Below are positions 1 through 19,933 of a DNA stretch of 64,000 nucleotides, in pieces. This stretch comes from a bacterium. GTDB taxonomy: Bacteria > J088 > JAWLBW01. The stretch spans positions 1 through 64,000 of the forward strand of contig JAWLHK010000015.1 of NCBI GenBank assembly GCA_041690355.1, read 5' to 3'. The notes beneath the pieces were generated by a model. That model was not told the origin of the DNA. It ran no database searches and was given only the letters and a program-made list of their open reading frames with translations. The position numbers and the translations under genes are program-made. Every line of letters begins with the position of its first letter. Position 1 is the first letter of the stretch.

Positions 1-374
1 GCGATGGCGTGCAGGTCACGACGGGAGAGGAGAAGGTCGCCGCCTGATCGAATTTACACACAATTTGACGGAAGCTCTAGAATTCGGTCGACAGTATATG
101 TGCCCTGCCTTGAAACTAAGGTTAGGCAAAAGCGAGGGCCTGGAACTATTCTTTAAGACTTGGATTCTCTAGCCAGTAACCACTAGCTCATTGATTTCAG
201 CCGCTAGTTTTTGTTTTTCTTGGCAGAACCATTTTTTACACCAAGTCCTCTGGTTTGAACTGCGGCCTCCTCCAGCCCAATATCGCCCCTTCACGGAGGG
301 TATATGTTCTAGAATCGACCTATGCTTGGCCTGTTCATCGCTTACGCAGGGCGTTAGACGGCTTTGTTGCAATT

Positions 375-403
375 ACTATACTGGGAGGCCGCTGGGAAGG
401 CAA
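375..403 (-). promoter_or_regulatory. sigma70-like promoter in duplicated module (copy 1)
   Basis: Minus strand TTGCCT-N17-TATAGT; both hexamers conserved in the second copy at 9532..9561. Confidence 0.5.
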
Positions 404-605
404 AGCCCTTAGATATTCGAGCGGCCTTCCAGAGGACTAGGGCTGGGAAAAGGAGAGGCTGGGGGCGCGGCAGGGAGTGGGAGACAAAGCAAGGGCGAAA
501 CAAGAGCCAGACAAGGGCTGCGAGGTTGCTCTTGGTGCTCTCCGCGGCTCCGCGCTGAAAGGTCTTTAAGGCGAGCAGCACGGCGGTCCGGCCGGTTCCG
601 GGCCG

Positions 606-884
606 ATGGCCCGCAAGGGGCGCCAGGCCGTGGTGCACTATACCGGCTGGCTCACGAACGGCCGCAAGTTCGACAGCTCGCGCGGCCGCAACCCCTTCAC
701 GTTTCTGCTCGGCGCCGGCCCGGTTATCAAAGGCTCTGACGCGGGCGTCAACGGCATGAAGGTCGGCGAAATCCGCAAGCTCACCATCCCCCCGCACCTG
801 GGCTACGGCGCCCGTGGCGCGGGCGGCGTGATTCCGCCCAATGCGACGCTGGTGTTCGAGGTGGAGCTGCTCGAGGTGAAGTGA
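606..884 (+). pseudogene. FKBP-type peptidyl-prolyl isomerase, probably 5'-truncated
   Basis: [36 protein letters not shown] motifs; in-frame TAA at 567-569 and the first FKBP strand appears missing. Confidence 0.65.
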
Positions 885-903
885 GGGGAGGGGGGGAGCC
901 CTC

Positions 904-1226
904 TCACAACTTCTTACGACTTTCGCGTGCTCCCGTGCGGCCACGTGTCAAAAAGCGCTGCTTTCGAGCAGCGCTTTTTGTTTTTGGGGGGCTACTTCCC
1001 CGTTCCGGCTGCGGAGCGAGGCTTCCAGTCGATCCGCGGGCTTTCCCGTGCGCCGCGCAATCTTTCAGATAGAAGCTGTTGAGGGTCTGGTACGGAATCT
1101 CCACCTCTTCGGCGAGATTCTTGAAGTAGGTCAACGTATCTTCGTCGATACGTATGGTGACCTGCTTCTTCAGCCGCCTGGCGTACGGATTCTTCCGCGC
1201 CTCTGAAAGTCGTAGTGCTTTCTCAT
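904..1226 (-). pseudogene. BrnA/CopG-like antitoxin, frameshifted
   Basis: ATG at 1226 reads MRKHYDF, then a 1-nt frameshift leads into EARKNPYARRLKKQVTIRIDEDTLTYFK..IPYQTL; no adjacent toxin gene. Confidence 0.75.
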
Positions 1227-1310
1227 GTTTTCGGCTTGTCCACGGAACCGGGAGCAGCCCAATCCGCCTTCCGGTAAAGGTAGGAGAACCAAGTTTGTTT
1301 GCAGGCCGAG

Positions 1311-1856
1311 CTAGTTTTTGGGAACCGGGTTATCTTGCTTGCCGGTAGAAAAACTTGCTAACTCCATTTTCAACGCTGAGTCACCATATAGTAGCTGAAG
1401 CAACCCGCGTCGCAAAAGCATGTTCTCGTTCTCTATCTGTCCATGTGCTTCTGGTGCGTAAACGCCTTTTTTTACGTGCACCTCATCGAACTCGTAACCA
1501 AGACATTTTCCCATTTCCATCAACAGCGTTGTGAGGCGGTCAACCCGCCTATCTGCCCACTGTTGTTGGGCAGGTTCTCCTGCTTCCTTCGGAAAACTAG
1601 CGAGGTGGTCCAAGTAAGCCTTCCAGGCATCAGTGACGGACTTGTACCGCTTCCCGTGAAATTCAAGATCAATCATGTTCAGAGCCTGTACGTGTTCAGG
1701 CGATACCGTCGCAGCTCGAGTTGCCATCAGTGTCTTGAAGACATGTAGTCTCCTCCCGCGCTCCTCACGAAACACCTCTAGCCACCTCTGCACCTGTACG
1801 GCAACTAATGGCGCAAGCAAAATCGCAAGGATCGATAGTATTTCATTCAAGGTCAC
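1311..1856 (-). CDS. DUF6680-like protein with N-terminal TM helix
   Basis: 181 aa; AILLAPLVAVQVQ..FKTLMATRA..HVQALNMIDLEF pattern; lower GC; GGAG RBS upstream. Confidence 0.7.
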   Translation of the reverse strand: MTLNEILSILAILLAPLVAVQVQRWLEVFREERGRRLHVFKTLMATRAATVSPEHVQALNMIDLEFHGKRYKSVTDAWKAYLDHLASFPKEAGEPAQQQWADRRVDRLTTLLMEMGKCLGYEFDEVHVKKGVYAPEAHGQIENENMLLRRGLLQLLYGDSALKMELASFSTGKQDNPVPKN

Positions 1857-1952
1857 TTCGTTCTCCTATCTCAGAAGCACGCTGATACTAAGGCGCGGCT
1901 GCGGTGAGGACCATCTCTTAAAAGAGCCGGGAGTTGGGCAGTACTTTGCGAA

Positions 1953-2052
1953 ATCTAACGGCCAGCTTTCACCGGCGAGGCTTCAGTTTAATTTGATAGC
2001 TTAGCACGCAACACCGGGTGGGAGCCGTCCGCGTGAGAACTCTCTGCTAGGC
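1953..2052 (+). other. degenerate attC-like site
   Basis: ATCTAAC (RYYYAAC) ... GCTAGGC (near GTTRRRY) with imperfect inner complementarity TTTCACCGG / CCGCGTGAGAA. Confidence 0.4.
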
Positions 2053-2190
2053 GTCTCACATCCTGGTGTCGTCGTGTCCTGCCAGCAATCCAGGAACACA
2101 CTTCAAGTGTTGTCTCACGTGTGCTCTGCTGGGTGGCTCGGGCCGTCGTCGCAACACACAGTACGGAACTAGTGAGTGGGCGTCGGCCGA

Positions 2191-4239
2191 TCACCAGTCC
2201 TCCAGGAGCGCATCGCGCTGCTCGCGGGAGCCGATCGACGACACTTCGACCGCGTGCCGGAGCGAGTTCAGGTACGGCCGCGTGTCGCTGTCGTTCTCAA
2301 GGACGGCAGCGACCTTCCTGATCGCCGGGGGGCTGTGAAGGATCGAGAAGAGCGTCTCCAGCGACGCGTTCTGGTTCTCAAGCAGGCGGGCCATCGCCTT
2401 GGCCAGACGCTCGCACTTGTCCCAATCCCTCCAGTACGACGACGAGGGAGCGTACTCCAGCAGCCACTCCCATTCGTCGTACTCGAGGCGCGAGTTCCCA
2501 GCGGCGTCGTAGGTGGGCTGGAAGCACGATGCGAAGAGTGGCGACTCCAATTTGCCTTCCCAGAACGCCAGCGTCAGACCGAATGCAGCCACCCGCGACG
2601 GGAGTTCCATGGCGGCGGCGGTGCCGGCCTTCCACACCGTCACTAGCCGCGACTGGGTGTACTTTGGGCTCAAGAATCGGCTGCCGAGCGCGAGCTCGGC
2701 GAGCGATGGAGCAGAGAAACTCTCAAGCCACTCGAGCACGGCGTCGCGTTGACCACCGAGAGCGTACCGCCAGGGCCACGAGAGGTGGAGCTTCCCCGAC
2801 GCGATCGCGGTGAGGCATCGAAAGACAGCCGCCTTTCCTCCGAAGCGGATGAGCCCGTCCACCGACACATCGCACCCCGCGGAAATTATGGCGTCTATGA
2901 TCGATGCGCGTTCTTCGTCGGCGAGGTTCATGCCACCAAGCTGCGAGAGAACCTCCCTACTTCGAGCGCCCACTCTTTTCCACAAAATGGGCGATGATGC
3001 GAGTTGGTGGTTCGCACCAACGATGGTCGGCAGATACGGTGCCTGCGTATCGCCGAAGGATTCGAGGTCGGTCGGCGTGAGTAGGAGCACGGTGGCGTGA
3101 AGTATGCGTTCTCCAACCTCCGTCAGGGGCCCGCCCAAGAGCGATTGGACAAAAATCACAGCGTCCTTTCGAGAGTCCTCAAAGAGCTGCCGCGCCTGTT
3201 CCTCGAGGGTCGTAGCGAACGGGGCGAGGTCGTTCTCTCGATGTCCACTGAGGTCTCGAAGAAGCGCACTTCGCGCAGGGGCGCCGAACTCCGCGTTCGC
3301 CCGGTCGAAGACCATGCCGACGAGTCGATTACGCACGACGGGGTCGAGGTCGTTCGCGGCGAGGACGCTCGCGAGAGCAGTCTGCGCCGACGAGCCTGGT
3401 GCGTTCCATGCGCAGAAAACCGGAGCGAGACTCGGCACCACGCCTCTTGGCGCGCAGGTGCCAGCAGCGGCATCAAGCCATGAGCGAAACGTCGAGTCGC
3501 CTCGCCTGGCGCCTTCAACAAAGAGCTCGACCCAATTCTCAATGGTTCCGGGGGTTCGAAGATCGAGCACGAGCGCCGCGCCTGCGCTCTTGCGAAACTG
3601 CGACGTCGGGACCGCTCGCGGGACAGCCTGAAGGTCCATCAGCGCACCGGCCACAGAGCGGGGCATCAGCGCACCTGTGCAGAACGAGAAGCGGGCCTTG
3701 GCCGTCGGCCAAAGCTCCTCCCACAACCGCAGGATCGAGAGTTCGAGCTGACCAGCATTCTCCACGGTTACGATCACCGGGCGCGCCTGTCCAAGCACAG
3801 CTCCAACAAGAGTGGCGGCCACCGCCGGATCCGCGAATCCGTCGATCTTGCCGCTACCGGCCGCTTCGTCGATCTCAATCGGCATTCTGGCTGCGCTTTC
3901 CACGCCCTCGCGTTGAGGCCGTCGGAACTTCGAGAGGAGGGCCGATGCGGACGTCTGCGATATCTGCTCACGAGACAGCAAGAGGGAGTGGGTCCATACG
4001 CAGCCAGGCCGCTGCATCTCAGGTGCGGACCAAGTCTTGGCGAAGACGAAGAACTCACTCTCCGGCAACGGATATCCAGTGATGTATTCGTCGAAGCCCG
4101 GATACATGGCGGGACCGGACATGTCGCTCAAAATCAGCATCGTCCTTGCAGTGTCGGCGCTGGGCGACAACGAACTGCTCAGCAGGCGATGTCCATCGCG
4201 GTAGCCGTGAATCGCCTGGTGGATGCTCATGGGAGGCAT
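2191..4239 (-). CDS. GTPase-associated protein 1 (GAP1-N1-like) of a predicted conflict system
   Basis: 682 aa; N-terminal HQAIHGYRDGHRLL..SDMSG..GYPL..AKTWSAPEMQRPGCVWTHSLL; last gene of the coupled operon. Confidence 0.75.
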   Translation of the reverse strand: MPPMSIHQAIHGYRDGHRLLSSSLSPSADTARTMLILSDMSGPAMYPGFDEYITGYPLPESEFFVFAKTWSAPEMQRPGCVWTHSLLLSREQISQTSASALLSKFRRPQREGVESAARMPIEIDEAAGSGKIDGFADPAVAATLVGAVLGQARPVIVTVENAGQLELSILRLWEELWPTAKARFSFCTGALMPRSVAGALMDLQAVPRAVPTSQFRKSAGAALVLDLRTPGTIENWVELFVEGARRGDSTFRSWLDAAAGTCAPRGVVPSLAPVFCAWNAPGSSAQTALASVLAANDLDPVVRNRLVGMVFDRANAEFGAPARSALLRDLSGHRENDLAPFATTLEEQARQLFEDSRKDAVIFVQSLLGGPLTEVGERILHATVLLLTPTDLESFGDTQAPYLPTIVGANHQLASSPILWKRVGARSREVLSQLGGMNLADEERASIIDAIISAGCDVSVDGLIRFGGKAAVFRCLTAIASGKLHLSWPWRYALGGQRDAVLEWLESFSAPSLAELALGSRFLSPKYTQSRLVTVWKAGTAAAMELPSRVAAFGLTLAFWEGKLESPLFASCFQPTYDAAGNSRLEYDEWEWLLEYAPSSSYWRDWDKCERLAKAMARLLENQNASLETLFSILHSPPAIRKVAAVLENDSDTRPYLNSLRHAVEVSSIGSREQRDALLEDW

Positions 4240-4242
4240 AGC

Positions 4243-5109
4243 CTACATCTGCTCCAAGAGCCAGGCGATCGGCATGGTGATGTCCTGACTGGCCTCGTTG
4301 CCGTGCAGTACCTTGATTCGTTTTAGTGCGTCGTCCAGATCGAGCAGCGCCTTTTTTTGCTCCCCCACCATAATGTCACCGCCTTGCGCACTCACGCCGA
4401 AAACCGTGTGATCAAGGCGGTCATTGTTCGATTCTAGGAACTGACGCAGCAGCGGCAATTCGCGTGCCATGTACTCGTGCGGCGTTCCCTTGAACGATGC
4501 GTGCTCGACGAGATCCCATGCCGAGAATATTACCGCGACCCGCACCTTGCTCACGGCGCAATCGAGGGCAAACTGCAGCAGTTCGACGAGAGCCACCTGC
4601 GTCGGCAGCTTCTCGATCGACCACGGCTCGCTGGCGCTAAGCGGCGCGCTACCTGCCATAGCGGGCTGGGAAGCATCGTTGAGTATGGTTCTAAGTTGCC
4701 GCGAGTACGTGAGCCTTGTGCCCTCCTTCATCCGAGGGTGGACAAACAGCACGAATCCCGTCGCTCGCTGGATGATCTCGTGGTGGCCAACGGCGATTTT
4801 CCGGTCACTGAGTTGCTGCTCGAACCCCTCACCCGAGAGGTCCGGGACGGTTAGTTCGAAGTCGGAATTGCCGCTCGCAAGGCTAAGAACCACTGACTGC
4901 TCGTGTTCAAGCTTTGTGCGCTGGACTTGGGAACACGCCCGCCAGTCCGTTGCGATCTGGTGGAGGTACGTCCGATCGATGCTAAGCCCCTTGAGCTTCA
5001 GGCGCGTCTCACTGCTGCGGTCATCCAGTACATGCCAGAGCGCTGCTAGGAAGGTCGTTTTCCCCGAGCCCGGCAGACCCATGAAGAGTAGATTTGCTTC
5101 AGCGCTCAA
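4243..5109 (-). CDS. TRAFAC-clade (double-GTPase type) GTPase 2
   Basis: GLPGSGKTT, DLSGE, FSAWD, VSA; TTG start at 5109 after AAGGAGG overlaps the upstream TGA. Confidence 0.8.
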   Translation of the reverse strand: MSAEANLLFMGLPGSGKTTFLAALWHVLDDRSSETRLKLKGLSIDRTYLHQIATDWRACSQVQRTKLEHEQSVVLSLASGNSDFELTVPDLSGEGFEQQLSDRKIAVGHHEIIQRATGFVLFVHPRMKEGTRLTYSRQLRTILNDASQPAMAGSAPLSASEPWSIEKLPTQVALVELLQFALDCAVSKVRVAVIFSAWDLVEHASFKGTPHEYMARELPLLRQFLESNNDRLDHTVFGVSAQGGDIMVGEQKKALLDLDDALKRIKVLHGNEASQDITMPIAWLLEQM

Positions 5110-6041
5110 GACTCCCTCCTTACGGCGTGCCGCCAACCATACTTTGCGAACTCACGGCCGTCGATCGGAGGGTCGTTTTGGAGCGCCGCGTCTGCGCCCA
5201 CAGCGACGGGCGTCGTCCAAGAAATGAAGGCGTCTTCCAAGCCGTCGTTGAGGGAAGCCTGCCTCTGGTCGACTTCGGGTCGTGCGGCGATACGCCGGAA
5301 TCCAAGGTGGGGGACTCGACCCCCGAACTTCGCTCTAAGTTTCTTTTCGGTCCTGTTCAGGAACTCGACGGCTGCTTCACCTGCCTCGATAACGCGATCG
5401 AGTTTCGAGAAGACAAACTCTACCCGGCAGCGGCTCCCGATCATCTTCGCGTCGAGGAAGCTCTCTAAGATGCTTGATGCATCCGACTGTGCGTTCGTCC
5501 TCTGCGCGTTGATGGCGAGCCGCGCACCGTCCACGAGTACGACGACAGTGTTGGCGCGATGGAGGAAGGTCAGTCGCTCGCATTCCTCTCGTGAATACTT
5601 CGCCAGTCGAAAGAATTCCCCTGAGATCGCCGAGAGTAGGACATGGCGCCGCTTCGCAGTGGGATCGGTGCCGCGCAAAGCGAGGTGGTAGTAGGCGGCT
5701 TCGTCGGAAACCCGGGTATGAGGCGTATCAGGGTATTCGCGGCCGGACGCGAGGCGGTTGAGGTAGCAGATTTGTTCGAAGCCAAGCAGCGAGCGCGACC
5801 CTGCGAACTGGAATCCAGCGAACGGACCGTCGCAAAATCGCTCGTAGAGTGAGGCAAGGACCGTCGTCTTTCCACTCTCTGAAGCCCCTGCGAAGACAAC
5901 GAGATGAGCCGGCGATCGCAGGGTAACCGCATCGGCATCCTCGATGCTAAGCTCCTTGCCCGCGTAAACATCGATGAAGGCCGGCGTGGGCTCATCTACC
6001 TGGGCGTTGGCAGCAGACTCTGCGGGAGGGGCACCAGCCAT
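5106..6041 (-). CDS. TRAFAC-clade (double-GTPase type) GTPase 1
   Basis: GASESGKTT Walker A, SAISGE (degenerate G3), FSKLD G4. Confidence 0.8.
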   Translation of the reverse strand: MAGAPPAESAANAQVDEPTPAFIDVYAGKELSIEDADAVTLRSPAHLVVFAGASESGKTTVLASLYERFCDGPFAGFQFAGSRSLLGFEQICYLNRLASGREYPDTPHTRVSDEAAYYHLALRGTDPTAKRRHVLLSAISGEFFRLAKYSREECERLTFLHRANTVVVLVDGARLAINAQRTNAQSDASSILESFLDAKMIGSRCRVEFVFSKLDRVIEAGEAAVEFLNRTEKKLRAKFGGRVPHLGFRRIAARPEVDQRQASLNDGLEDAFISWTTPVAVGADAALQNDPPIDGREFAKYGWRHAVRRES

Positions 6042-6042
6042 A

Positions 6043-7128
6043 TCAGTCCTCTGTGACTGTGAGGGCGCGCAGCAAGACGGCTTCTACGTACGCCTGCTTT
6101 GCAACGACCTTCGGTGAGAGCGGTTTCGTGGCAGCAACGCCGCCGGTCTTCTCGAAGTACTGCTGCCAGTTCGCCGTACCACTCTTTGCCCGCTGCAATA
6201 GAGCGAGCGACAATGGCGTGAGGTCCAACGCGTGCTCGGGTAGGTCAGCGGTCCGTGTCTTCGCCCATTCGTCGGAGACGGCATTCACGTACACGTTGAG
6301 CGGCTGGTCCTTGTTTCTCCCCTTGGTCAAGCTTACGACCCTCTCCAAGAACGCATCGACCTCACGCGGCCCTAAGGCGGCGTCAGTGAGGTCGGCCAGC
6401 TCCCACCCAGCAGTGAGGGGCACCTCGTCTTTCAGCGCATGCCACGGCTTGTGTAGGTCCCGACTGCATCCGCCCTCCAGCCACCACAGGATGTTGGTCT
6501 CCTCATCGGCGCACCGAAGGTCGTGAGCAGCGTCGGCGAGTGCGTCCTCCGAACGATGCACGGCTTTCAATATGGTTTGAAAGGCGGTCGCGAAACTTTG
6601 GCGCAGTTGATTATGATCGGGCATGTTGGTCTCGATCGTCTTCGCGAAGGCTTTCTCTTCCTCGGCGGTCAGGAGGAGCGAGTCGAAGCCCTTTCGGCGT
6701 CGCTGACGCCTCGCCAGATCCTCGATAGCGGCGAGCACCTCCTGGCTGATCTCCTCCAGAGGGCCTTCCTCTATGCGGAGGCGTGAAGCGGCGATAGCAG
6801 CACCTGCGAGAATTGCCGTGTGCAGGTCGTCGTCCTCTTCATTGCATGTAACAATGTGGACCAGTGTGGCTCCAGCGAGCACCTGCTGCTCAAGTTCGTT
6901 GTTGCGCTGCTGGAAGGCAGGATCGTGCTTGCGAAACGCCGCCAAGAAGGGCTCGCGCGACGCAACCTCAGGCAGTCCCTGAAAGACGCGAACCGTCTCG
7001 AGAACCGCATCGGCCTCGTCGTGGAGGGTCGCGCTCCACTCCTCGACTCCGGCCCAGCGGCTTTTGAGTACGTCACCGTTCGGTTCAATGCGGACCAGCC
7101 GATACCACTCTGCGAAGTTCTTATGCAT
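6043..7128 (-). CDS. GTPase-associated all-helical protein (GASH-like)
   Basis: 361 aa, predicted helical; FAEWY..RWAGVE and EETNILWWL motifs; position between effector and GTPases. Confidence 0.7.
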   Translation of the reverse strand: MHKNFAEWYRLVRIEPNGDVLKSRWAGVEEWSATLHDEADAVLETVRVFQGLPEVASREPFLAAFRKHDPAFQQRNNELEQQVLAGATLVHIVTCNEEDDDLHTAILAGAAIAASRLRIEEGPLEEISQEVLAAIEDLARRQRRRKGFDSLLLTAEEEKAFAKTIETNMPDHNQLRQSFATAFQTILKAVHRSEDALADAAHDLRCADEETNILWWLEGGCSRDLHKPWHALKDEVPLTAGWELADLTDAALGPREVDAFLERVVSLTKGRNKDQPLNVYVNAVSDEWAKTRTADLPEHALDLTPLSLALLQRAKSGTANWQQYFEKTGGVAATKPLSPKVVAKQAYVEAVLLRALTVTED

Positions 7129-7133
7129 GGGCG

Positions 7134-8480
7134 CTACTCTCCGACCTGCGAGTTACGAAAAGGGTTAAAGTGCGTCCGGTCGTCATGGTGCAGTTCGGTC
7201 TCGTCCCACAGCTCTGCGAGACGCCGTGCCTCCACCGCCCGCTGAAAAACCTCGAGGAAGACGGTGTTGGGAGGTAAGGCATCATCGCCCTCGCGCATCA
7301 GCCCAAGTTTCAGCGCGATTTGGTACCGATCAAGCGTCGATAGCCTGAGGAAACGGAACGTGAGTCTCTGCTTGTGGTCCTCCGCACTTGGGCTTGCGAC
7401 GGCACTCGATGTTGCTGTGACTTCCAGCGGAGTGGAAACAGGCCGAGCGACCTGGACAACCTTGGACGCAAGAGACGGCGGACTCGCCGTTGCGGGAATG
7501 CGGCGAGGAAATCCAGGCCACTTGTAGTCGCGATACTCCTCGTCGGTGTTTGGATCGCGTTCTGCGGTGAAGCTCGTCTCAGGCTGGTTCCATCGGCGCT
7601 GATACAATCGCAGACCGATGTGCTCCTCGTCGCGACGTTGGATCTCCAGAACATTGTAGGTGGGGACCCAGGCGAGGTCGCGGCGCTCGGGATGCATGGC
7701 GCCCGCGACAACACGAACCTTGCCATTGATCGCGTCCACCCGCTGGGCGTGCTTGTGCCCGAAGAGCTGGATGTGAACCATGGACTTCAGGTGGTCCTCC
7801 ACGGGATCTTGGTCGAGGAGCCACTCAGGCGGGTGGTGACATAGCGTCAGGTGCAGGACGCCGTTTTCACGCTGCACACCAGCGTAGGCGGTCCCGAGGA
7901 TCATCTTCCCCTTCTCGTCCTCAGCATTCGACACGTAGGCACTGCAGAGACCGCGCATGCGGATCGTCGTACCACACGAGAGACGGAGATCGCGCTGCCA
8001 GTAAGGCGCCTTGGCAGAGATCTCACACCCGTAGGGTTGAGCGAACACGTTGTACTCCGCCAATGGCGCAAGGAGCGCGTTCGCCGACTGGACGTCGGAG
8101 AAATACTCGCGCAGCTTCAAATCGATGGCGGGGCCAGCGAGGACACGGATGCTCTGGTGAAGCATCTTCGTGAACATGCCATTAGCGAGCTTCCGGTTAA
8201 CGTCGTGATTGCCCGGAACGACGGAGACGTGTTGTTCCTCGCATCCGACGGCATCGCAGACCTTGCGCAGCCACTCGGCTGCGTGCTGATACTCCTCCTT
8301 CTTCCCCGAAAAGGCGATGTCGCCGGTGACCAACACGCCGGTGGCAGAACCCAGCCGCTTGGTCAACTCGGTGACGTCCCGGAGCAATTCGTCACGAACG
8401 TTCTGATCGACGTCGTGAACGTTCCCCGACGAGCCGGTGAAATGGATGTCCGAAAGGTGTATGAGGATGAGTTTTTCCAT
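7134..8480 (-). CDS. calcineurin-like metallophosphoesterase with C-terminal helical adaptor domain
   Basis: HLSDIH, TGD, PGNHD, HHP, GHKH motifs; Pro/Ser/Ala linker then a ~70-aa helical tail. Confidence 0.85.
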   Translation of the reverse strand: MEKLILIHLSDIHFTGSSGNVHDVDQNVRDELLRDVTELTKRLGSATGVLVTGDIAFSGKKEEYQHAAEWLRKVCDAVGCEEQHVSVVPGNHDVNRKLANGMFTKMLHQSIRVLAGPAIDLKLREYFSDVQSANALLAPLAEYNVFAQPYGCEISAKAPYWQRDLRLSCGTTIRMRGLCSAYVSNAEDEKGKMILGTAYAGVQRENGVLHLTLCHHPPEWLLDQDPVEDHLKSMVHIQLFGHKHAQRVDAINGKVRVVAGAMHPERRDLAWVPTYNVLEIQRRDEEHIGLRLYQRRWNQPETSFTAERDPNTDEEYRDYKWPGFPRRIPATASPPSLASKVVQVARPVSTPLEVTATSSAVASPSAEDHKQRLTFRFLRLSTLDRYQIALKLGLMREGDDALPPNTVFLEVFQRAVEARRLAELWDETELHHDDRTHFNPFRNSQVGE

Positions 8481-8699
8481 ATAATCAGCCCCTCGAGACC
8501 TTCATCGCGGGGAGCTGAATCAATGCTGGGTAGGTACGTTCCCGCCGGGACTCCATCGCGCTTCTAATGCGGTGGGCAATACTGGCGGCTCTGCGCACGT
8601 ACGATCCACCAGATGCGATTCGAAGTATAGTTTGGTCTGGCATCCTGTCCTCGATATGCATGGAACCCCCTCTCCGCCGGACCTGAGGACGCGGTTTGA

Positions 8700-8745
8700 T
8701 ATCGGGGGCTCGCTTTAGCGAACTCCCTGGGGTGCCTGGTTGGGC
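8700..8745 (-). other. truncated attC-like site at the 3' end of the DUF2971 gene
   Basis: Minus strand GCCCAAC-CAGGCACCCCAG followed by hairpin GGGAGTTCGC-TAAA-GCGAGCCCCC; no R' box found. Confidence 0.4.
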
Positions 8746-9368
8746 GAAGCGAGAGGAGGAACATGGTCTGCGTCTATTCCTTCGTCACCTATCCCGGTTC
8801 TACATAATTCGATTCCTTTGTGGCCGCATATAATGCGCAGCGCCTCAAATAATGCTGGATTCATTCGGTGTCCCGCGATGACGCGTGAAACAGGAGACTC
8901 CAGGCGATACCACTCATTTTCCTGAAGAATTCGCACTTCTTGTTCGTATTGCCACTCGTTGTATTTGGAAGACAGAACTTGCTCCGCCGCCTGAGAGGGG
9001 GAGAGTGTCCCATCAAACGCAACGTAGCCAAAAACTCCACGGTACTCGACATGTTTCACAAACGGTGATTCTTCTGGAAGCTCGACTTCGATGGCTAACC
9101 CATCGAAACCGGATGCGTAATGCGCCCAAAGCAAGTGACAATCGAAAGTCTTTGAAAGGGAGCAAACTTTCAAGCGCTTCTTCTGTCGAACAATTTCGTC
9201 AACGTCCTTTATATAATCGTGCTCGTCTGATGAGCGGTAGGAGTAGACGAACATCCCTTCCATCGGGTCGTTCAAGGTTCGCCAGTCCGAACAATACAAC
9301 CGATTGTTGAAAATAATATCTAATGCAAACGGTATTTGGCTTGAAGCCCGGAATTTGTACGCCTTCAT
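8715..9368 (-). CDS. DUF2971-like protein
   Basis: LNDPMEG, VCSLS..LLWAHYA..G, K..EWQYEQEVR motifs; AT-rich; likely start MKAYKFR at 9368. Confidence 0.8.
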   Translation of the reverse strand: MKAYKFRASSQIPFALDIIFNNRLYCSDWRTLNDPMEGMFVYSYRSSDEHDYIKDVDEIVRQKKRLKVCSLSKTFDCHLLWAHYASGFDGLAIEVELPEESPFVKHVEYRGVFGYVAFDGTLSPSQAAEQVLSSKYNEWQYEQEVRILQENEWYRLESPVSRVIAGHRMNPALFEALRIICGHKGIELCRTGIGDEGIDADHVPPLASPNQAPQGVR

Positions 9369-9387
9369 ATATCCCAATGTATATAAC

Positions 9388-9516
9388 GCATAACCCCTAT
9401 TAAACGACCCCTCGCTGCCTTCGCTCTCCGGCATTGCGCATGCCTTACATGCGGTAGCATCTGTTCGCCTTGCGAACTAGGCTGAACCCTTCCATCACCT
9501 ATGCAGGGCGTTAGGC
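9388..9516 (-). other. degenerate attC-like site upstream of the DUF2971 gene
   Basis: Minus strand GCCTAAC (9510..9516) with candidate R' boxes GTAAGGC (9442..9448) or GTTATGC (9388..9394). Confidence 0.35.
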
Positions 9517-9531
9517 GGTTCTAGTCCAAAT

Positions 9532-9561
9532 ACTATACCGGGAGACCGCTGAGAAAGGCAA
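9532..9561 (-). promoter_or_regulatory. sigma70-like promoter in duplicated module (copy 2)
   Basis: Minus strand TTGCCT-N18-TATAGT pointing at the DUF2971 gene and GTPase operon. Confidence 0.5.
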
Positions 9562-9626
9562 AGCACTTTGGGTACCCACGTAGCTTTCACGCGGACTGGG
9601 GGGACTGGGGAGAGGGGGGACTGGGG

Positions 9627-10954
9627 CATAAGCGCTAACTTAAGTATTGACTGAGCACCCGGGTTCCGATACGCTTTAGGCCATGGAGGGTTCGGACCTC
9701 GAGCAAGAATGGGCTATCTTGGCCAGCATGTTGCCGCCGGGCTGGCGAGAAGCCGCACGCACGGATGGCGCACTCGTTCGTGCAAGAGAGATAGATTCTC
9801 CAGATACACTCCTCCGCTTGATTTTGCTGCATGCAGCGGCAGGGCTCTCACTTAGGCAGACTGTGGCCCGAGCCGAATTGGCTGGCCTTGCCAAGGTTTC
9901 AGACGTCGCTCTGTTCAAGAGACTCCGGTCTTCGGAGAGATGGCTTCGGCACCTTTCGCAAGGCCTATTGGAATCCTCTCCCCTTACGTTAACTCTTCCC
10001 GAGAAAATCGTTGGCTATCGCCTACGGGCCATTGATGCGACAACAGTGGATGAGCCCGGCGCCACCGGCACAAGTTGGCGGCTCCATTACAGCATCAGCC
10101 TACCGTCGTTGGAATGCGACTTTTTTGAGGTCACTGACGTTAAGGGCGGTGAGACCTTCCGACGGTTTCCGGCCAAGCACGGCGACATCGTGCTGGCAGA
10201 CCGCGGATATTGCCATCGCCCCGGTGCGTCGGACATCATCGAGCGTGGCGCTCACGTGATCGTTCGTTTGAATTATCAGAATTTTCCGCTTCTGGACTCG
10301 TCAGGGAAAAAGTTTCCGATTCTGAGCCGGCTTGCTCGACTGAAAGACTTCAGGCCCGGAGAATGGGATGTTGCTTTTGAAGCCGAGGGAAAGCGCTACG
10401 CAGGGCGGATCTGCGCCATACGCAAGAGTGTGGCGGCAACAGAGCGCAGCCGAAGGGAAATCATTCGAGAGGCAGGCAGAAAGGGGAAAACCCCGAGCCA
10501 GGGGACGCTAGATGCCGCAGCGTTCATCTTTGTATTCACGACCTTGCCAACCCGAGAGTTTTCGGCAAGCGATGTGCTCAATCTTTATCGGGCGCGCTGG
10601 CAGATCGAGCTGGCATTCAAGCGACTGAAGTCACTCTTCGGAGCCGGGCATGTGCCAAAATACGACCCGGAATCGGCACGAGCTTGGATCCAAGCCAAGC
10701 TTCTGGCCGCACTGATGATCGAACGATTAGAGCAGGAAGCTGCTCATTTTTCCCCCTGGGGCTACTCACTCCCCTTGGCGTAGTCCCTGGAGAGAGTTTG
10801 TAGAAGCGAGAGATTCGTTTCTTTCCGTCATATCTTTCCCAATCAAGCCCTCTAGATATGTTCGGCTTGGCCACTGCCTTCCGAACATGCTCGCTGAAAG
10901 GCCTCGCAAAAGACGTCCTCAAATGGCATCCGCTTTGCTAAGTTAGCGCTTATG
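9627..10954 (+). mobile_element. IS4-family insertion sequence, 1328 bp
   Basis: 16-bp terminal inverted repeats CATAAGCGCTAACTTA; 11-bp target duplication GGGGACTGGGG at 9616..9626 and 10955..10965. Confidence 0.93.
9683..10783 (+). CDS. IS4-family DDE transposase
   Basis: AIDAT, LADRGY, YRARWQIELAFKRLKS (YREK) motifs. Confidence 0.93.
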   Translation: MEGSDLEQEWAILASMLPPGWREAARTDGALVRAREIDSPDTLLRLILLHAAAGLSLRQTVARAELAGLAKVSDVALFKRLRSSERWLRHLSQGLLESSPLTLTLPEKIVGYRLRAIDATTVDEPGATGTSWRLHYSISLPSLECDFFEVTDVKGGETFRRFPAKHGDIVLADRGYCHRPGASDIIERGAHVIVRLNYQNFPLLDSSGKKFPILSRLARLKDFRPGEWDVAFEAEGKRYAGRICAIRKSVAATERSRREIIREAGRKGKTPSQGTLDAAAFIFVFTTLPTREFSASDVLNLYRARWQIELAFKRLKSLFGAGHVPKYDPESARAWIQAKLLAALMIERLEQEAAHFSPWGYSLPLA

Positions 10955-11191
10955 GGGGACTGGGGGGACGAAACAAGGGACAGGCAAGAACCTAGACAAA
11001 AGCCAGGGTTGCAGACCGCCGGCTGTTGGTTCTCTCCGCGGCTCCGCGCCTCCGCGTGGAATCGTTTTTAAGCGCCACTGCCCATGAAACGGGAGCGCAC
11101 GGGGCGCTGGCCCTTCGACCCTTCGGCAAGCTCAGGACAGGCCAGCACAGGGCGAACGGTGGCGCCGGTCTGGCAGAGGCCGGGAGGGGGC

Positions 11192-13258
11192 TCAGGAGAG
11201 CTTGAATCCGTCGACGGCTTCGGAGAGGTGGGCGACGGCGTTGTTGACTTCGCGCAGCAGCTCGTCGAGGGCCGCCAGGCGGCGCTCGTTCTCGTGGAGC
11301 AGCGACTGGTTGTCCTGGATGGAACCCAGAACGGCTTCGCCTTCGTTCTTGAAGCGGGCCGCGCTGTCGCTGATGGCCGTCACGGCAGAGGAAAGGCGCT
11401 GCATGCCGTCGTTGATGCGGCGGTTGCCTTCGCCCTGCTCCTCAGAGCGGCGCAGGACGTTGGCGGCCAGCTCTTCCATGTTCGCAATGGCGCGCTGAAT
11501 CTGGTTCGAGGCCGAGGCTTCCTGCTGCGTCGCCGAGGCGATCTGGTGGCTGATGTTGGCGACGCGCGTGCTCGATTCCGCCAGCGCCTGCGTGCTCTTC
11601 TTCTGCTCTGACATGGCCGTGGCGATGAGCTGGGCCATCTCTTCGCTGCGCACGCTCGTGTCGAAGATCTGCTTGAGCTTCTCGCGGGCCGAGGCGCTCT
11701 GCTTTTCGCCCTCGTCGACGATGGCCAGGCCGTTGCCGACCCGCTCTTCCGCACGCCGGGTCTCTTTCTGCACGCCCTGGACGAGCCCCTCGATTTCGCG
11801 CGTCTTGGCCGCCACCTGGCGGGCCAGATCACGGATGCCGTCGGCGACGACCGCGAAGCTCGCCCCCGATTCACCCGCCGCCGCCGCGATGATGGCCGCG
11901 TTGAGCGCGAGCAGGTTCGTCTTCTCGGTGACCTGGTTGATGACGGTGACGATCTCGCCGATCTCCTGGCTGCGGTTGCCGAGCTCGCTGATGACGTCGG
12001 CCGTCTCGCGCACGGCCGACTTGATGCGCCCCATGACGTCGCCGTTCTTCTGCACCGCCTCGAGCCCCTCGCGGGCGCTCTTGCTGACTTCCTTGGAGAG
12101 TTCGGTGCTGAGCTGCGCATTCCCCTCGACGTCGTTGACGGTCGTCGAGATTTCCTGCAGGGCCTGGCTCATGTCGTCGGTGTTGCGCGCCAGGTCACGC
12201 GAGCGGTCGGCGACTTCCGTAATCGAGCGGCTGATCTCGAGCACCGAGCTCGAGGTCTCGGCCACCGATTCGTTCAGGCGCGCGATGTGCTGCTCGACTT
12301 CTTCGATGGCGCCGCCAATCTGGAGAACCGACGAGCTGGTCTCCTGGGCGATGACGAACAACTCTTCCACACGGTGCTGAATGTCGGCCGTGCCGGCGTC
12401 AATCGTCTCCATGCTGCGGATGCTGCGCAGCATGGCCTCGTTCTGGGCGCGAATCGTCTGGGCGAGGGCGGTCGACTCCTTGCGCAGCCGCTCGGTGTGC
12501 CCCGAGACGCTGCCCGCCATCTCGTCGATGCGGCTCACGATGCCGCGCACGCCGTCGGTCATGTTGGCGAAGGCTTCAGAAAGCTTGCCCATCTCGTCGC
12601 GGACGCCGCCGCCGCTGCCGGCGTGCTGAAAACCGACCGTCAGATCGCCCGAGGCGACGCGCGACGCGTCGCGCCCCAACGTCTGCAGGGGGAGCTCGAT
12701 GCCCTCGTGCACGATGTAATTCGTGAGCAGATAAAGGATGACGAGGGCCCCCAGCCCCACGAAGATGAGCGTGAGCAGGGTGCGCATCATCTTGCGGGCG
12801 AACCGCGTGTTGTCGAAGGCGATCTGGACCAGATACTCGCTGCCGGGGATCTGCGTGTAGACCTCGACGTTCTCGCCGGCGTCGACGAGAAAACTCTCCG
12901 ACCCTCCGGCCTCGGTGGGCGCGACCCGTTTGCCCACCTCATCGACCAGGTGCGAAGCCACGATCAGGCCGTTCGGGCGGATAACGCGGGCGTGGCGCAC
13001 GTTCTGATTGCCGTTGGCGAGCTTCTTCAAATCGAGCGAGAGAACTTCGAGGCTCGAATCTTCGGCCCCGAACATCTGCAGGCTGCTCTGCGCGCGCTCC
13101 CGCACCATGACCGCCAGGGCTTCGCCCTTCTCGCGCACCCCTTCGCGGAACTCGGAGCGCAGGATCAGGTAGAAGAAGACCATGATGAGCGCGAAGACGA
13201 GCGTCAACGCGATCGCCATGGATCGGAGAAAGCGGACCTTCAGGGAGTTCCCACGCAT
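11192..13258 (-). CDS. methyl-accepting chemotaxis protein
   Basis: Two TM helices, HAMP (RDEMGKL), hairpin tip [24 protein letters not shown]. Confidence 0.92.
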   Translation of the reverse strand: MRGNSLKVRFLRSMAIALTLVFALIMVFFYLILRSEFREGVREKGEALAVMVRERAQSSLQMFGAEDSSLEVLSLDLKKLANGNQNVRHARVIRPNGLIVASHLVDEVGKRVAPTEAGGSESFLVDAGENVEVYTQIPGSEYLVQIAFDNTRFARKMMRTLLTLIFVGLGALVILYLLTNYIVHEGIELPLQTLGRDASRVASGDLTVGFQHAGSGGGVRDEMGKLSEAFANMTDGVRGIVSRIDEMAGSVSGHTERLRKESTALAQTIRAQNEAMLRSIRSMETIDAGTADIQHRVEELFVIAQETSSSVLQIGGAIEEVEQHIARLNESVAETSSSVLEISRSITEVADRSRDLARNTDDMSQALQEISTTVNDVEGNAQLSTELSKEVSKSAREGLEAVQKNGDVMGRIKSAVRETADVISELGNRSQEIGEIVTVINQVTEKTNLLALNAAIIAAAAGESGASFAVVADGIRDLARQVAAKTREIEGLVQGVQKETRRAEERVGNGLAIVDEGEKQSASAREKLKQIFDTSVRSEEMAQLIATAMSEQKKSTQALAESSTRVANISHQIASATQQEASASNQIQRAIANMEELAANVLRRSEEQGEGNRRINDGMQRLSSAVTAISDSAARFKNEGEAVLGSIQDNQSLLHENERRLAALDELLREVNNAVAHLSEAVDGFKLS

Positions 13259-13374
13259 GGATATCCTTCGGAAGCAGCCCGTGAGCGGGGCTGTCTTAGT
13301 TTACCCAAGGGAACACCAAGGTTCAAACCGCCAAGGCCTTTGCTATAATAAAGGTTTGCCTTCAGGAAGACGCC

Positions 13375-14400
13375 ATGCAGTTCCTCATTGACGCCACCGG
13401 ATCTCCGGCCCTCGCCTGGGCCCTCGTCATCGCCATCGCGCTCGTCGTGCTCATCGCCATCGCCCTCTGGGTCAGGGCGTCGGCGCGCACCCGCCCGGGC
13501 GAGCCCGCCGTGGCGCGCAAGGGGCTCGACCTGCAGCTCGCGCGGGCGCGGGAGGGACTGCTCGGGCGCCTGCGCGAGGCCGTCAGCGGAGCCTCAGGGG
13601 CGGAACTGTTCTCCAACCTCGAAGAAGTTCTGGTCACGGCCGATTTCGGCCTCGACACCACCTCGGCCCTGCTCAAGAAGGTCAAGGAGAAGGATGCGGG
13701 CGCCGAGCACGTCGACGAAGCCCTGCGCGAGGCCATCCTCGAGATCTTCGACCGGGTGCAGCGCCCCTTCGAGCCCACCGCCAAGCCGACGGTCATCATG
13801 GTCGTGGGGATCAACGGGGTCGGCAAGACGACCAGCATCGGCAAGGTGGCCGCCCACTTCAGCCGCCAGGGGCGCACCGTGCTGCTGGGGGCGGGCGATA
13901 CCTTTCGAGCCGCCGCCATCGAGCAGCTGGGCATCTGGGCCGAGCGCTCGGGGAGCGACATCGTGAAGGGCCAGCCTGAGGGTGACCCGGCGGCCGTCTG
14001 CTTCGACGCCGTGAAGGCCGGCCAGGCCCGCGGGGTCGATCTGGTGATCTGCGACACCGCCGGCCGCCTGCACACGAAGAGCAACCTCATGGAAGAGCTC
14101 AAGAAGGTCAAGCGGGTCATGGCCAAGGCGCTGCCCGAAGCGCCCCATGAGATCTGGCTCGTCGTCGACGCCACGACCGGCCAGAACGCCATGCAGCAGG
14201 CCCGCCTTTTCCACGAAGCCGTCGGCCTGACCGGCCTGGTCATGACCAAGCTCGACGGCACCGCCAAAGGGGGCACGCTCGTCGGCATGGTGCGCGAGCT
14301 CGACGTGCCCGTGCGCTTCATCGGCGTGGGCGAGACGATCGACGACCTGCGCCCCTTCGACCCGCGCGCCTACGTCGAAGCCATCCTCGGCGAAGAGTAA
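13375..14400 (+). CDS. ftsY: signal recognition particle receptor FtsY
   Basis: [38 protein letters not shown]. Confidence 0.97.
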
Positions 14401-14444
14401 CCGCGCCGCTTTTCATCCTGCCGCCGGGTCTGATAGACTCTGGC

Positions 14445-15383
14445 ATGCCTTGGAAAGCGCTTGCTGTCCTCCTGATCTGCCTGGCGGCCGCCGAGCCCGC
14501 GTCTGCCGCAGACAAACCTGCCGAGCCGGTCCCCAGCCTGAGCGGGCTCGACCCCGCGCTCGTGAAAAGCATCGATATGCTGGCGGCCTACGTCGTGCGG
14601 GCCGTGGGCAAGGCCGATGTGCCCGTGGGCATCGCCCGATTCGCCAATCTGGGCGACGAGGCCCGCAAGCTGCGCATCGGCGAGACCGTGAGCGCCTTTC
14701 TGCAGCAGCGCCTCGCGGCGAGCAAGCAGGTGCAGCTTGCCGAAATCGAGGACATCGACCGCATTCTCGAGCAGATCAAGCTCGGCAAGCTGGGGCTCGT
14801 CGACTCGGCCTCGGCCGTCGAGGTGGGCAAGCTGGTCGGGGCGCGCATCATGGTCTCGGGCACGGTCGTGCCGGTCGGCGAATCGTACCAGATCGCCATC
14901 CGCCTGAACGACGTCGCCACCGGGCGCACGCTGGGCGCCACGACGGTCGAGATGCCGCGCCGGCTCATGATCGCCTTGACGCGTGACATCTACAACCTGC
15001 ACCAGGGCTGGTACGAAGCGCCCATGCGCTCGCTGCTCGTGCCGGGGTGGGGCCACTTCTACAACGAGCGGCCGGTGCGGGGATCGTTTTATCTCACCGG
15101 CGCCGTCGCCCTGTTCGCGGGGGCCGGCTATTCAGCCTTCGCCGCCGACGCCCGCCTTGCAGACTACCGGCTGGCCGGACGCGACGAAGCCGCGGCGCGC
15201 TACGGTGATTATCAGCAGGCGGTGCGGCGCACGAACCTGCTGCTCGGCCTCGGCGCGCTCATCTGGACCGTCAATGTGCTCGATGCCGGCATCAGCGGAC
15301 CGGCCGGCGAAGAATGGTCGGTGGCGTTCGGCCCCGGCCTCGACGACCTGTCGGGGGAGGTGAGGCTTGCGTATCGTTTCTGA
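14445..15383 (+). CDS. secreted CsgG/FlgO-like domain protein with DUF5683-like C-terminus
   Basis: Signal peptide; EQIKLG.LGLVD..SAVEVGKLVGA..G.V; RSLLVPGWGHFYN; ends VRLAYRF. Confidence 0.7.
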   Translation: MPWKALAVLLICLAAAEPASAADKPAEPVPSLSGLDPALVKSIDMLAAYVVRAVGKADVPVGIARFANLGDEARKLRIGETVSAFLQQRLAASKQVQLAEIEDIDRILEQIKLGKLGLVDSASAVEVGKLVGARIMVSGTVVPVGESYQIAIRLNDVATGRTLGATTVEMPRRLMIALTRDIYNLHQGWYEAPMRSLLVPGWGHFYNERPVRGSFYLTGAVALFAGAGYSAFAADARLADYRLAGRDEAAARYGDYQQAVRRTNLLLGLGALIWTVNVLDAGISGPAGEEWSVAFGPGLDDLSGEVRLAYRF

Positions 15384-15621
15384 TGGCTTGCGGAATGCGG
15401 GCTTGTGCCTCCGCCGGGGCTTCCTCGGACTTTCGCTTATGGGCCAGTCCTGTCCAGACCGGGTTCACCGGGTGACCGTTCGCCCTGAGGAGCCGGGCCT
15501 TGGGAATCGAAGCCCGATGCAGCGCCATGGTATCGCAAGGAGCTCCAATCCGGCGTCTCGAAGGGCCGGAACCGCTCGAACGGCGCGTTCGGGGCTTGAA
15601 AACACGCAATCGGCTCAGGCT

Positions 15622-17526: not shown

Positions 17527-17533
17527 CCCCGAA

Positions 17534-18887: not shown

Positions 18888-18941
18888 CCGCCCCCACCTC
18901 TTGCGCCACGCATGGCAGAAGGATTGGGAAGCTGACGGAAT

Positions 18942-19784: not shown

Positions 19785-19933
19785 GCGATCACCGTAAAGG
19801 GTACTACTATAGCAATGCAGGCGACTGCTTTCAATCGGACGGGGGCCGAGCCCGGTCTACCGCCCGGTCGGTCGAACTGTTACCATGACGGCAGTTCGCG
19901 CGGCGCCTGCCCGGCGCAGGCTGTCGCACGCGC

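Follow-up and report, generated by a model that had tools for sequence, protein, structure and literature searches.

GTPase-centred conflict systems built around GAP1, which rank with the larger families of immune systems predicted for prokaryotes, were described by Kaur, Burroughs, Iyer and Aravind (eLife 2020, PMC7159879). Section 28 of that paper defines a GAP1-N1 subsystem comprised of GAP1, the all-helical protein GASH, two DO-GTPases and a variable effector, most commonly a calcineurin-type phosphoesterase that is frequently coupled through a GTPase-associated adaptor domain (GAAD); effectors may also be linked by EAD1 or fused to GAP1. In the model given there, GAP1 senses, the GTPases switch and the phosphoesterase executes. 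Phosphoesterases of this kind also occur in DS-8, where a metallophosphatase is joined to a NACHT domain, and in DS-9, where it is paired with a HAD phosphatase, and both systems are reported to protect E. coli from phages (PMC13092281). Here we analyze a 64,000-nt stretch of bacterial DNA (the window; positions 1-64,000 of contig JAWLHK010000015.1, assembly GCA_041690355.1), which carries on its minus strand, from 8480 to 2191, an operon of five open reading frames (ORFs) that is almost certainly an intact example, canonical and of the commonest form, of these GAP1-N1 conflict systems.

All five family assignments exceed the Pfam curated cut-offs. Reading in the direction of transcription, gene 1 (7134-8480, 448 aa) encodes the metallophosphoesterase effector (Metallophos, E 1.3e-07, aa 7-245) with a C-terminal GAAD (PF19976, E 2.8e-12, aa 371-429, encoded by 7194-7370); gene 2 (6043-7128, 361 aa) encodes GASH (PF19994, E 8.9e-22, aa 3-354); gene 3 (5106-6041, 311 aa) encodes DO-GTPase2 (PF19993, E 3.1e-38); gene 4 (4243-5109, 288 aa) encodes DO-GTPase1 (PF19975, E 4.7e-66 across the full profile); and gene 5 (2191-4239, 682 aa) encodes GAP1, whose GAP1-N1 domain (PF20012, aa 6-98) scores E 8.2e-31 and 106.7 bits against a cut-off of 27. 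GAP1 is present as one copy in the host genome. An earlier sequence-only reading of this DNA had given the genes these same family names and proposed a hidden Markov model (HMM) search with GAP1-N1, GASH, DO-GTPase and GAAD profiles as a check; every profile matched the gene to which it had been assigned, and the likeness which that reading drew to the architecture predicted by the Aravind group is borne out by section 28 of PMC7159879. Its description of five co-oriented minus-strand genes with gaps of 5, 1, -4 and 3 nt also agrees with the ORF coordinates, which place 5 nt at 7129-7133 and 1 nt at 6042, a 4-nt overlap between genes 3 and 4, and 3 nt at 4240-4242.

The 4-nt overlap depends on where DO-GTPase1 begins. 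Its longest ORF, of 297 aa, runs from an upstream TTG at 5136, but judging from the signals around it the real start is the TTG at 5109-5107, because this codon forms a TTGA overlap with the DO-GTPase2 stop, follows an AGGAGG at 5120-5115 and coincides with the equivalent site at which homologues start, their domain beginning at residue 5-9. Promoter-like sites were no commoner than chance in a promoter scan (3 observed, 1.8 +/- 1.2 expected), and the same held for terminator-like sites in a terminator scan (5 observed, 6.5 +/- 2.7 expected). No sequencing run and no RNA record was listed for the 6.3-kb stretch. Overlapping the GAP1 stop is an ORF of 68 aa (1988-2194), which we considered as a further gene of the operon and rejected, as it is unconserved in 84 loci (best E 0.20).

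Those loci comprise flanked genome loci and a further 80 from an alignment-based scan of metagenome contigs, whose ORFs were classified with iterative HMMs built from the window proteins. The same five-gene order is found in all three flanked genome loci, from a gammaproteobacterial metagenome-assembled genome (MAG), a Polyangiaceae genome and Pyxidicoccus fallax, at 49-71% identity per protein. Of the 84 loci, the 45 that extend 4.7 kb or more beyond GAP1 on its upstream side were assessed, with two pairs of near-duplicates (L014/L015 and L076/L078) each counted twice, and the 39 with less than 4.7 kb were set aside. The complete series of phosphoesterase with GAAD, GASH, DO-GTPase2, DO-GTPase1 and GAP1 is present in 27 of the 45, so that gene order, whose lack of conservation the sequence-only reading had named as grounds for refutation, proves to be conserved. 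Fifteen further loci keep GASH, DO-GTPase2, DO-GTPase1 and GAP1 in this order and differ in the first slot: ten have another N-terminal domain with GAAD, three a phosphoesterase without GAAD, one a phosphoesterase without GAAD plus a split DO-GTPase1, and one another effector with GAAD plus a split DO-GTPase1. In the remaining loci HMM classification detected no effector (1/45), no GASH (1/45), or DO-GTPase1 and GAP1 only (1/45, L021). The neighbors of the operon in the window were found in none of the other loci, which indicates that the five genes form the mobile unit.

Three features of individual loci may be recorded here. In L021 a GAP1 that is 78% identical over the part present stands with a DO-GTPase1 fragment, and the other genes are absent from the 7.3 kb upstream. 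DO-GTPase1 is divided into two ORFs, by a frameshift or a sequencing error, at L036:9101-9968 and L060:4036-4943. In L058, L060, L061, L072 and L082 the phosphoesterase is 335-354 aa long and lacks GAAD, with GASH, the GTPases and GAP1 of normal length.

The effector slot is swappable, with GAAD retained. A PNP_UDP_1 domain (E 5.2e-15) with GAAD occupies the slot at L066:5751-6944 and also in L076 and L078, the Pfam test having been made on L066, whose effector additionally matches the PADLOC models 'PN-superfamily' (5.7e-18) and PDC-M60C (1.2e-23). Eight of the ten alternative effectors scanned instead combine GAAD with an N-terminal domain of ~240 aa for which neither Pfam nor PADLOC gives a match (L023:3223-4221, L024:6079-7086, L027:800-1765, L036:6175-7116, L037:6138-7088, L044:995-2074, L050:5766-6713 and L052:429-1418). 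The domain from L024 lies beside GNAT acetyltransferases in the ESM Atlas (feature score 0.96, structural TM 0.47-0.58), and a GNAT-like effector in this locus may be regarded as a lead only.

Both GTPases possess the Walker A motif GxxxxGK[ST], in keeping with the two P-loop GTPases of the sequence-only reading. In DO-GTPase2 this motif (G52..G57K58T59) is kept in 59/59 homologues, G141 and E142 in 58/59 and 59/59, and the lysine and aspartate of [ST]KxD (212-215) in 58/59 and 59/59, respectively. In DO-GTPase1, whose residue numbers follow the 297-aa ORF, G20, G25 and K26 are found in 66/66 homologues and the residues of D99xxG102E103 in 66/66, 66/66 and 65/66; NKxD is replaced by an invariant SAWD (205-208) that, with SAQ at 249-251, is conserved in 64-66 of 66. 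Both proteins therefore have the Gly-Glu pair, with the Walker-B glutamate that PMC7159879 gives for the two paralogous DO-GTPases. The window DO-GTPase2 has Ala138 where the Walker-B aspartate would stand. Position 138 is Ala, Ser or Gly in 13/13 members of the clade that share at least 48% identity (besides the window, L003-L005, L007-L011, L013, L014, L017 and L018) and Asp in 46/46 more distant sequences, and, as read from this alignment, the loss is a clade-wide derived change amid otherwise strong conservation. Given that DO-GTPase2 of this clade lacks the Walker-B aspartate, the pair is probably functionally asymmetric, with one hydrolyzing and one mainly nucleotide-binding subunit.

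GAP1 is the component for which the present analysis offers something new, namely a predicted longin plus DENN-like fold for residues 1-245 (3505-4239) and a HEAT/ARM-like α-solenoid for residues 246-682 (2191-3504, including the stop codon). An AlphaFold2 (AF2) model of full-length GAP1, built from a 50-sequence alignment reaching 21% identity, has a pLDDT of 91.0 and a pTM of 0.75, and is α/β over residues 1-230 and all helical from 235 on. Foldseek searches with the full model returned only weak matches to HEAT/ARM-type repeat proteins (best E 1.9e-03), while VIA-align placed DENND1A, a lokiarchaeal longin domain, DENND10 and TagF on residues 1-250 among its solenoid matches; residues 1-245 were therefore folded and searched alone. 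The model of this part (pLDDT 92.8, pTM 0.91) has the longin domain fold expected of a DENN module. Against 48,161 chains, 20 of 50 VIA-align rows are longin, DENN or Roadblock-type GTPase regulators by our own reading of the entry titles, and Foldseek ranks DENND1A (E 9.9e-04, prob 0.97), TagF (1.5e-03, prob 0.99) and C9orf72:SMCR8 (3.8e-03) at the top. Sequence identity in these structural matches is 4-11%, and the Pfam DENN, uDENN and longin profiles do not match GAP1 at E up to 0.1. The DENND1A alignment on the full model extends to residue 321, into a region at the d-DENN position that merges into the solenoid, and a d-DENN part in the modeled GAP1 is not established. Taken together, the models make it quite likely that the N-terminal domain of GAP1 has a longin fold.

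Across 49 sequences the invariant residues of this module are G12, Y13, G16, H17, D39, G42, T69, W70, R77, P78, C80, V81, W82, T83, H84, F186 and T188, of which G12, Y13, G16, H17, D39 and R77 to H84 (with G79) are distributed over the first hairpin and a strand of the longin part. The longin-domain GTPase-activating proteins (GAPs) FLCN, Nprl2 and SMCR8 use an arginine finger, for which R77 in GAP1 is by analogy a candidate. We also predicted a complex in which GAP1 1-245 was the partner of DO-GTPase1 and DO-GTPase2, with two GTP added and a separate alignment for every protein. The median score was 0.57 (runs 0.61, 0.52 and 0.57), with a partner pLDDT of 86 and at least 65% of contacts shared between runs. 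The control in which DO-GTPase2 was replaced reached 0.36 as best of three, and both controls in which the partner was replaced gave 0.00. The docking mark is reached by 58/80 solved complexes and 2/110 mismatched pairs, but scores of 0.60 or less include no more than 7 of the 80 and both of the passing mismatches. By the calibration of the tool, a docking result of this size will be wrong in most cases except where the prior is high. The prediction lends weak support to the docking of GAP1 1-245 on the GTPase pair.

How far the fold speaks to function can be read in two ways. GAP1 may be a scaffold or sensor without guanine nucleotide exchange factor (GEF) or GAP action, its longin/DENN likeness reflecting a common α/β arrangement or residues 130-230 forming a degenerate STAND/AAA+-like nucleotide-binding domain; this alternative is a serious possibility, though short of an even chance. 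That GAP1 is a true prokaryotic DENN/longin-type GEF or GAP of an asymmetric heterodimeric GTPase pair is a tentative proposal, to which we give a slightly lower chance still. Were it true, bacterial immune operons of this kind would share the regulatory logic of eukaryotic FLCN-FNIP/GATOR1-Rag and DENN-Rab, and might relate to their ancestors. The words longin, DENN and Roadblock are absent from the main text of PMC7159879, and we found no paper joining 'DENN' with 'anti-phage'; text matches to 'DENN' in PMC6612558 proved to be the surname Dennis and were discarded. According to Zhang et al. 2012 (PMC3521125), the DENN module consists of longin, DENN and d-DENN parts and acts as a Rab GEF, and longin domains are derived from prokaryotic MglB-like GAPs. 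A 2026 preprint on ParA (10.64898/2026.10.19.760177) states, citing unpublished observations, that in potential anti-selfish-element systems GTPases are often found together with domains of a profilin-longin-like type; its passages on this point do not name GAP1.

The rate at which the parts diverge suggests where recognition could lie. By mean all-pairs identity over the 25 loci that carry every part, GAP1 246-682 is the most divergent (20.7%), followed by GASH (25.8%), DO-GTPase2 (31.2%), GAAD (33.9%), DO-GTPase1 (35.4%), the phosphoesterase (38.5%) and GAP1 1-245 (38.8%). Because the two helical components diverge fastest, a recognition or docking role may be assigned to them: sensing is more plausibly placed in the GAP1 solenoid and in GASH, and the predicted GAP1 N-terminus resembles a GTPase-regulator module rather than a sensor. 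Both points refine the model of PMC7159879, which the sequence-only reading had also proposed. GASH itself has no match in PDB, PADLOC or NCBIfam and no usable one in the ESM Atlas.

The phosphoesterase retains all five metal motifs (D11xH13, G53D54, G90N91H92D93, H215H216 and G241H242xH244), each conserved in 36 homologues, as the sequence-only reading had held for the window protein. Its closest validated relative is the metallophosphatase of DS-8, and that of DS-9 is homologous too. The NCBIfam DS8_antiphage model (NF053861) matches aa 8-283 on profile positions 1-270 of 994 at E 3.4e-34, and DS9_1 (DS-9A, NF053862) matches at E 1.8e-16; both are domain-level matches, scoring 117.8 bits where the cut-off is 790 and 60.1 bits where it is 420, and the window protein is therefore not a DS-8 or DS-9 member. 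In DS-8 and DS-9A, mutation of the metallophosphatase catalytic residues abolished defence (PMC13092281), and the homology to these validated anti-phage enzymes argues for an effector role of the phosphoesterase in defence. PADLOC PDC-S60 also matches gene 1 (5.8e-18).

DNA degradation is a common output of abortive infection, and the phosphoesterase might be a Mre11/SbcD-like nuclease acting on the DNA of the phage or of the host. SbcD/Mre11 chains are indeed matched by the phosphoesterase-family profile among PDB sequences (2.1e-05 to 5.6e-03), and a PADLOC 'Effector, Endonuclease' model matches aa 7-102 of gene 1 at 9.4e-14. The same profile, however, matches GpdQ (6.8e-09) and the class-III cyclic-nucleotide phosphodiesterase Rv0805 (7.2e-07) better, in alignments that span motifs I-III only (~95 residues), too short a stretch to tell substrate classes apart. 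Pfam detects no Mre11-type capping or DNA-binding domain, an NCBIfam cAMP phosphodiesterase model matches gene 1 at 0.0031, and the PNP_UDP_1 domain that fills the same slot is of the nucleoside-phosphorylase type. PMC7159879, in its treatment of this family, predicts a nucleotidyl phosphodiesterase, and the authors of PMC13092281 relate the domain of DS-8 to the cGAMP phosphodiesterase SMPDL3A, its substrate not being known there. A nuclease of this kind is accordingly improbable, and a nucleotide is the more likely substrate, a preference that leans on the rank of GpdQ and Rv0805 ahead of SbcD/Mre11 and on the PNP-type effector found in the same position.

The distribution of the cassette is patchy. 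Of 41 genomes sampled around the host, whose lineage is thinly covered (one other genome of its family and three of its phylum), the host alone has GAP1-N1; of 151 from the order to which the Pyxidicoccus carrier belongs, 2 have it, the carrier included. Among the 120 matches listed of 282, GAP1 is nonetheless 62-82% identical in the Myxococcota (Sorangium, Pyxidicoccus, Myxococcus, Corallococcus and Archangium), a gammaproteobacterial MAG and a Rectinemataceae (spirochaete) MAG. Among 72,556 plasmid records, 29, of which 23 are conjugative, carry distant relatives (<60% identity), and no GAP1 match was found among 50,697 phage records. The GAP1 N-terminal module is widespread, with 2,462 representatives (clusters at 50% identity) at E up to 0.001 among 1.84 billion, 1,769 of them at 1e-30, and is always N-terminal, mostly of proteins of 650-740 aa. 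Given this patchy distribution despite 62-82% GAP1 identity across phyla, together with carriage on plasmids, the five-gene cassette fits the pattern of a horizontally acquired and horizontally moving accessory system.

In several of these loci the cassette adjoins other defence genes. The BREX genes pglZ-brxL end 4 nt before it in the Polyangiaceae genome (L004:2-4714) and in a metagenome contig (L011:929-5712), and HmaC lies upstream of it in another contig (L014:1-3276). A scan of 120 of 242 candidate flank ORFs, taken from loci L002-L043, gave four matches to BrxL models and two each to PglZ, HmaC, PDC-S05, mad2 and PDC-S23. The cassette seemingly inserts where other defence operons end. 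In L086, a plasmid of Simplicispira suum (NZ_CP027671.1, 691-10052), the five genes follow two short gmtX coding sequences and a VPA1269-family gene, and the cassette is therefore read as cargo of a Gamma-Mobile-Trio (GMT) island; NCBI names two of its genes 'metallophosphoesterase' and 'GTPase-associated system all-helical protein GASH' and the other three as hypothetical. GMT islands are described as rich in defensive tools (10.1101/2023.03.28.534373). The terms GTPase and metallophosph* are absent from the main text of that preprint, which does not define its candidates GAPS3, GAPS5 and GAPS8, one of which might be such a system.

The surroundings of the operon in the window are also those of acquired DNA. 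G+C content is 0.585 over positions 1-11000 against 0.652 over 11001-64000, and G+C at third codon positions (GC3) is 0.68-0.745 in the five operon genes against 0.86-0.92 in five likely core genes of the window. An intact insertion sequence (IS) of 1,328 bp at 9627-10954 (+) has perfect 16-bp terminal inverted repeats (9627-9642 / 10939-10954) and encodes a 366-aa DDE_Tnp_1 transposase at 9683-10783; the 42-contig assembly contains this IS only once. The sequence-only reading had pointed to a codon style unlike that of the host core and to mobile DNA nearby, and both observations stand. Directly upstream of the operon, a 239-aa gene at 8715-9434 (-) matches the PADLOC phage-defence candidate PDC-S31 over the full profile (E 8.9e-74), and this gene does not co-occur with the cassette in the other loci. 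It has a weak Pfam DUF2971 match, and its GC of 0.487 and GC3 of 0.521 lie below those of both the operon and the host core. Downstream of the operon, at 1311-1856 (-), is a gene for a DUF6680 protein (Pfam 3.6e-60, GC 0.498) that has no PADLOC match. Core-like genes begin at ~11.2 kb, the first being a chemotaxis receptor, and no tRNA lies within positions 1-20000. As the window starts at base 1 of the contig, the left border of the island is out of view.

Atypical GC3, the IS, the PDC-S31 neighbor, adjacency to BREX and Hma genes elsewhere and patchy distribution together make an immune or conflict role of the operon likely. The fuller proposal, in which the operon is a GAP1-N1-type conflict system acting as an anti-phage or anti-mobile-element module with a GTPase-switched phosphoesterase, is on balance the reading we favor. 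On this proposal, DO-GTPase1 and DO-GTPase2 would form a heterodimeric nucleotide switch, probably asymmetric, which GAP1 would hold through its longin and DENN-like module and whose nucleotide state it would set as a GEF or GAP. The C-terminal solenoid of GAP1 and GASH would detect a component of the invader and dock the effector through its GAAD tail. A change in nucleotide state would then release or activate the metallophosphoesterase, which would hydrolyze a phosphodiester substrate, likelier a nucleotide or nucleotide-derived molecule than DNA, leading to arrest of the infected cell. If so, a GTPase switch would license a nucleotide-depleting metallophosphoesterase as an abortive-infection effector.

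Several observations weigh against this proposal. Neither window GTPase has a cysteine before Walker A and hence an N-terminal zinc ribbon, and CxxC occurs in the N-termini of just 1/59 DO-GTPase2 and 0/66 DO-GTPase1 proteins of related loci, whereas PMC7159879 describes a zinc ribbon on one DO-GTPase as typical (60% of DO-GTPases overall) but not obligatory. Within the close clade GAP1 is the most conserved protein, at 64-71% identity compared to 49-57% for the others, and is thus a poor fit to a rapidly evolving sensor at short range. GAP1 and GASH are matched by no PADLOC or NCBIfam profile, and the published literature yielded computational papers only, with no experimental work found on any DO-GTPase, GAP1 or GASH system; the short PDB alignments of the phosphoesterase and the calibration of the docking score count on the same side. 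PADLOC likewise holds no model for the core of the operon, and PDB sequence searches with each of the five proteins, or with the DO-GTPase1 and DO-GTPase2 profiles, gave P-loop-level or chance matches only and no solved relative. A system of this kind is known from comparative genomics only, as the sequence-only reading had said in stating that it knew of no experimental mechanism, and since no experimental study of these systems was found, the defence role is inferred from context.

It is very improbable that the operon instead serves a mobile element in addiction or competition, or is a GTPase-regulated housekeeping or signaling device that merely turns over a second messenger. In favor of such a reading, the system has no known phenotype, Table 1 of PMC7159879 gives no link of GAP1-N1 systems to a particular lifestyle, GAP1 is unusually conserved across phyla, relatives ride on conjugative plasmids and SMPDL3A, the eukaryotic relative named for DS-8 in PMC13092281, degrades a signal; against it stand the patchy distribution and foreign composition of the operon, the cassettes that adjoin BREX, Hma and PDC-S31 genes or sit in a GMT island, a swappable slot filled with effector types common to CBASS-like systems, the need for homologous metallophosphatases in defence by DS-8 and DS-9 (PMC13092281), and the absence, by Pfam, of any other candidate killing effector among the five genes.

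The locus is compact, intact and canonical, and relatives in culturable hosts and on plasmids make the favored proposal of a GTPase-switched immune module directly testable. If the longin/DENN-like fold holds, it would for the first time give the 'third component' a concrete hypothesis at the biochemical level, that of a regulator of the GTPase pair, and would link a bacterial conflict system to the architecture of eukaryotic Rab and Rag regulators. Similarly, the common metallophosphatase ties the system to DS-8 and DS-9, such that the substrate of one would inform the other.

Compared to the GAP1-N1 system of section 28 of PMC7159879, the window operon has the same components in the same order and a likewise variable effector slot that includes phosphoesterase and PNPase-type effectors. 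It differs in that the zinc ribbon is absent from both GTPases here and, nearly throughout, from those of related loci, in that its clade has lost the DO-GTPase2 Walker-B aspartate, and in that the putative GNAT-like effector of related loci falls outside the section 28 list. With DS-8 and DS-9 (DefensePredictor, Science 2026, PMC13092281) it shares a homologous phosphoesterase domain, the metal-site residues of which are required for defence in both DS-8 and DS-9A. The DS-8 domain is part of a fusion with a NACHT NTPase, and in DS-9 a HAD phosphatase accompanies the domain, whereas here it carries a GAAD and stands with a GTPase/GAP1/GASH core.

The comparison extends to eukaryotic regulators and to NTPase-based immunity. 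GAP1 1-245 is predicted to consist of a longin domain followed by a putative α/β DENN-like domain, an arrangement set beside those of DENND1A-Rab35, DENND10, FLCN-FNIP2, GATOR1, C9orf72-SMCR8 and TagF. FLCN-FNIP and GATOR1 act on heterodimeric Rags, and GAP1 is in turn genetically tied to a paralogous GTPase pair; the partners here, however, are DO-GTPases and not Ras-like small GTPases, and the long C-terminal solenoid of GAP1 is not found in DENN proteins. With the anti-phage NTPases of the STAND/NLR-like type (Avs and NACHT proteins, DS-8 among them), the operon would share the logic of an effector, an NTP switch and a variable helical-repeat surface, and it draws on the same effector family. 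In contrast to these proteins, in which the switch is a fused STAND ATPase, the switch here would be a separate TRAFAC GTPase pair, with the parts distributed across five polypeptides.

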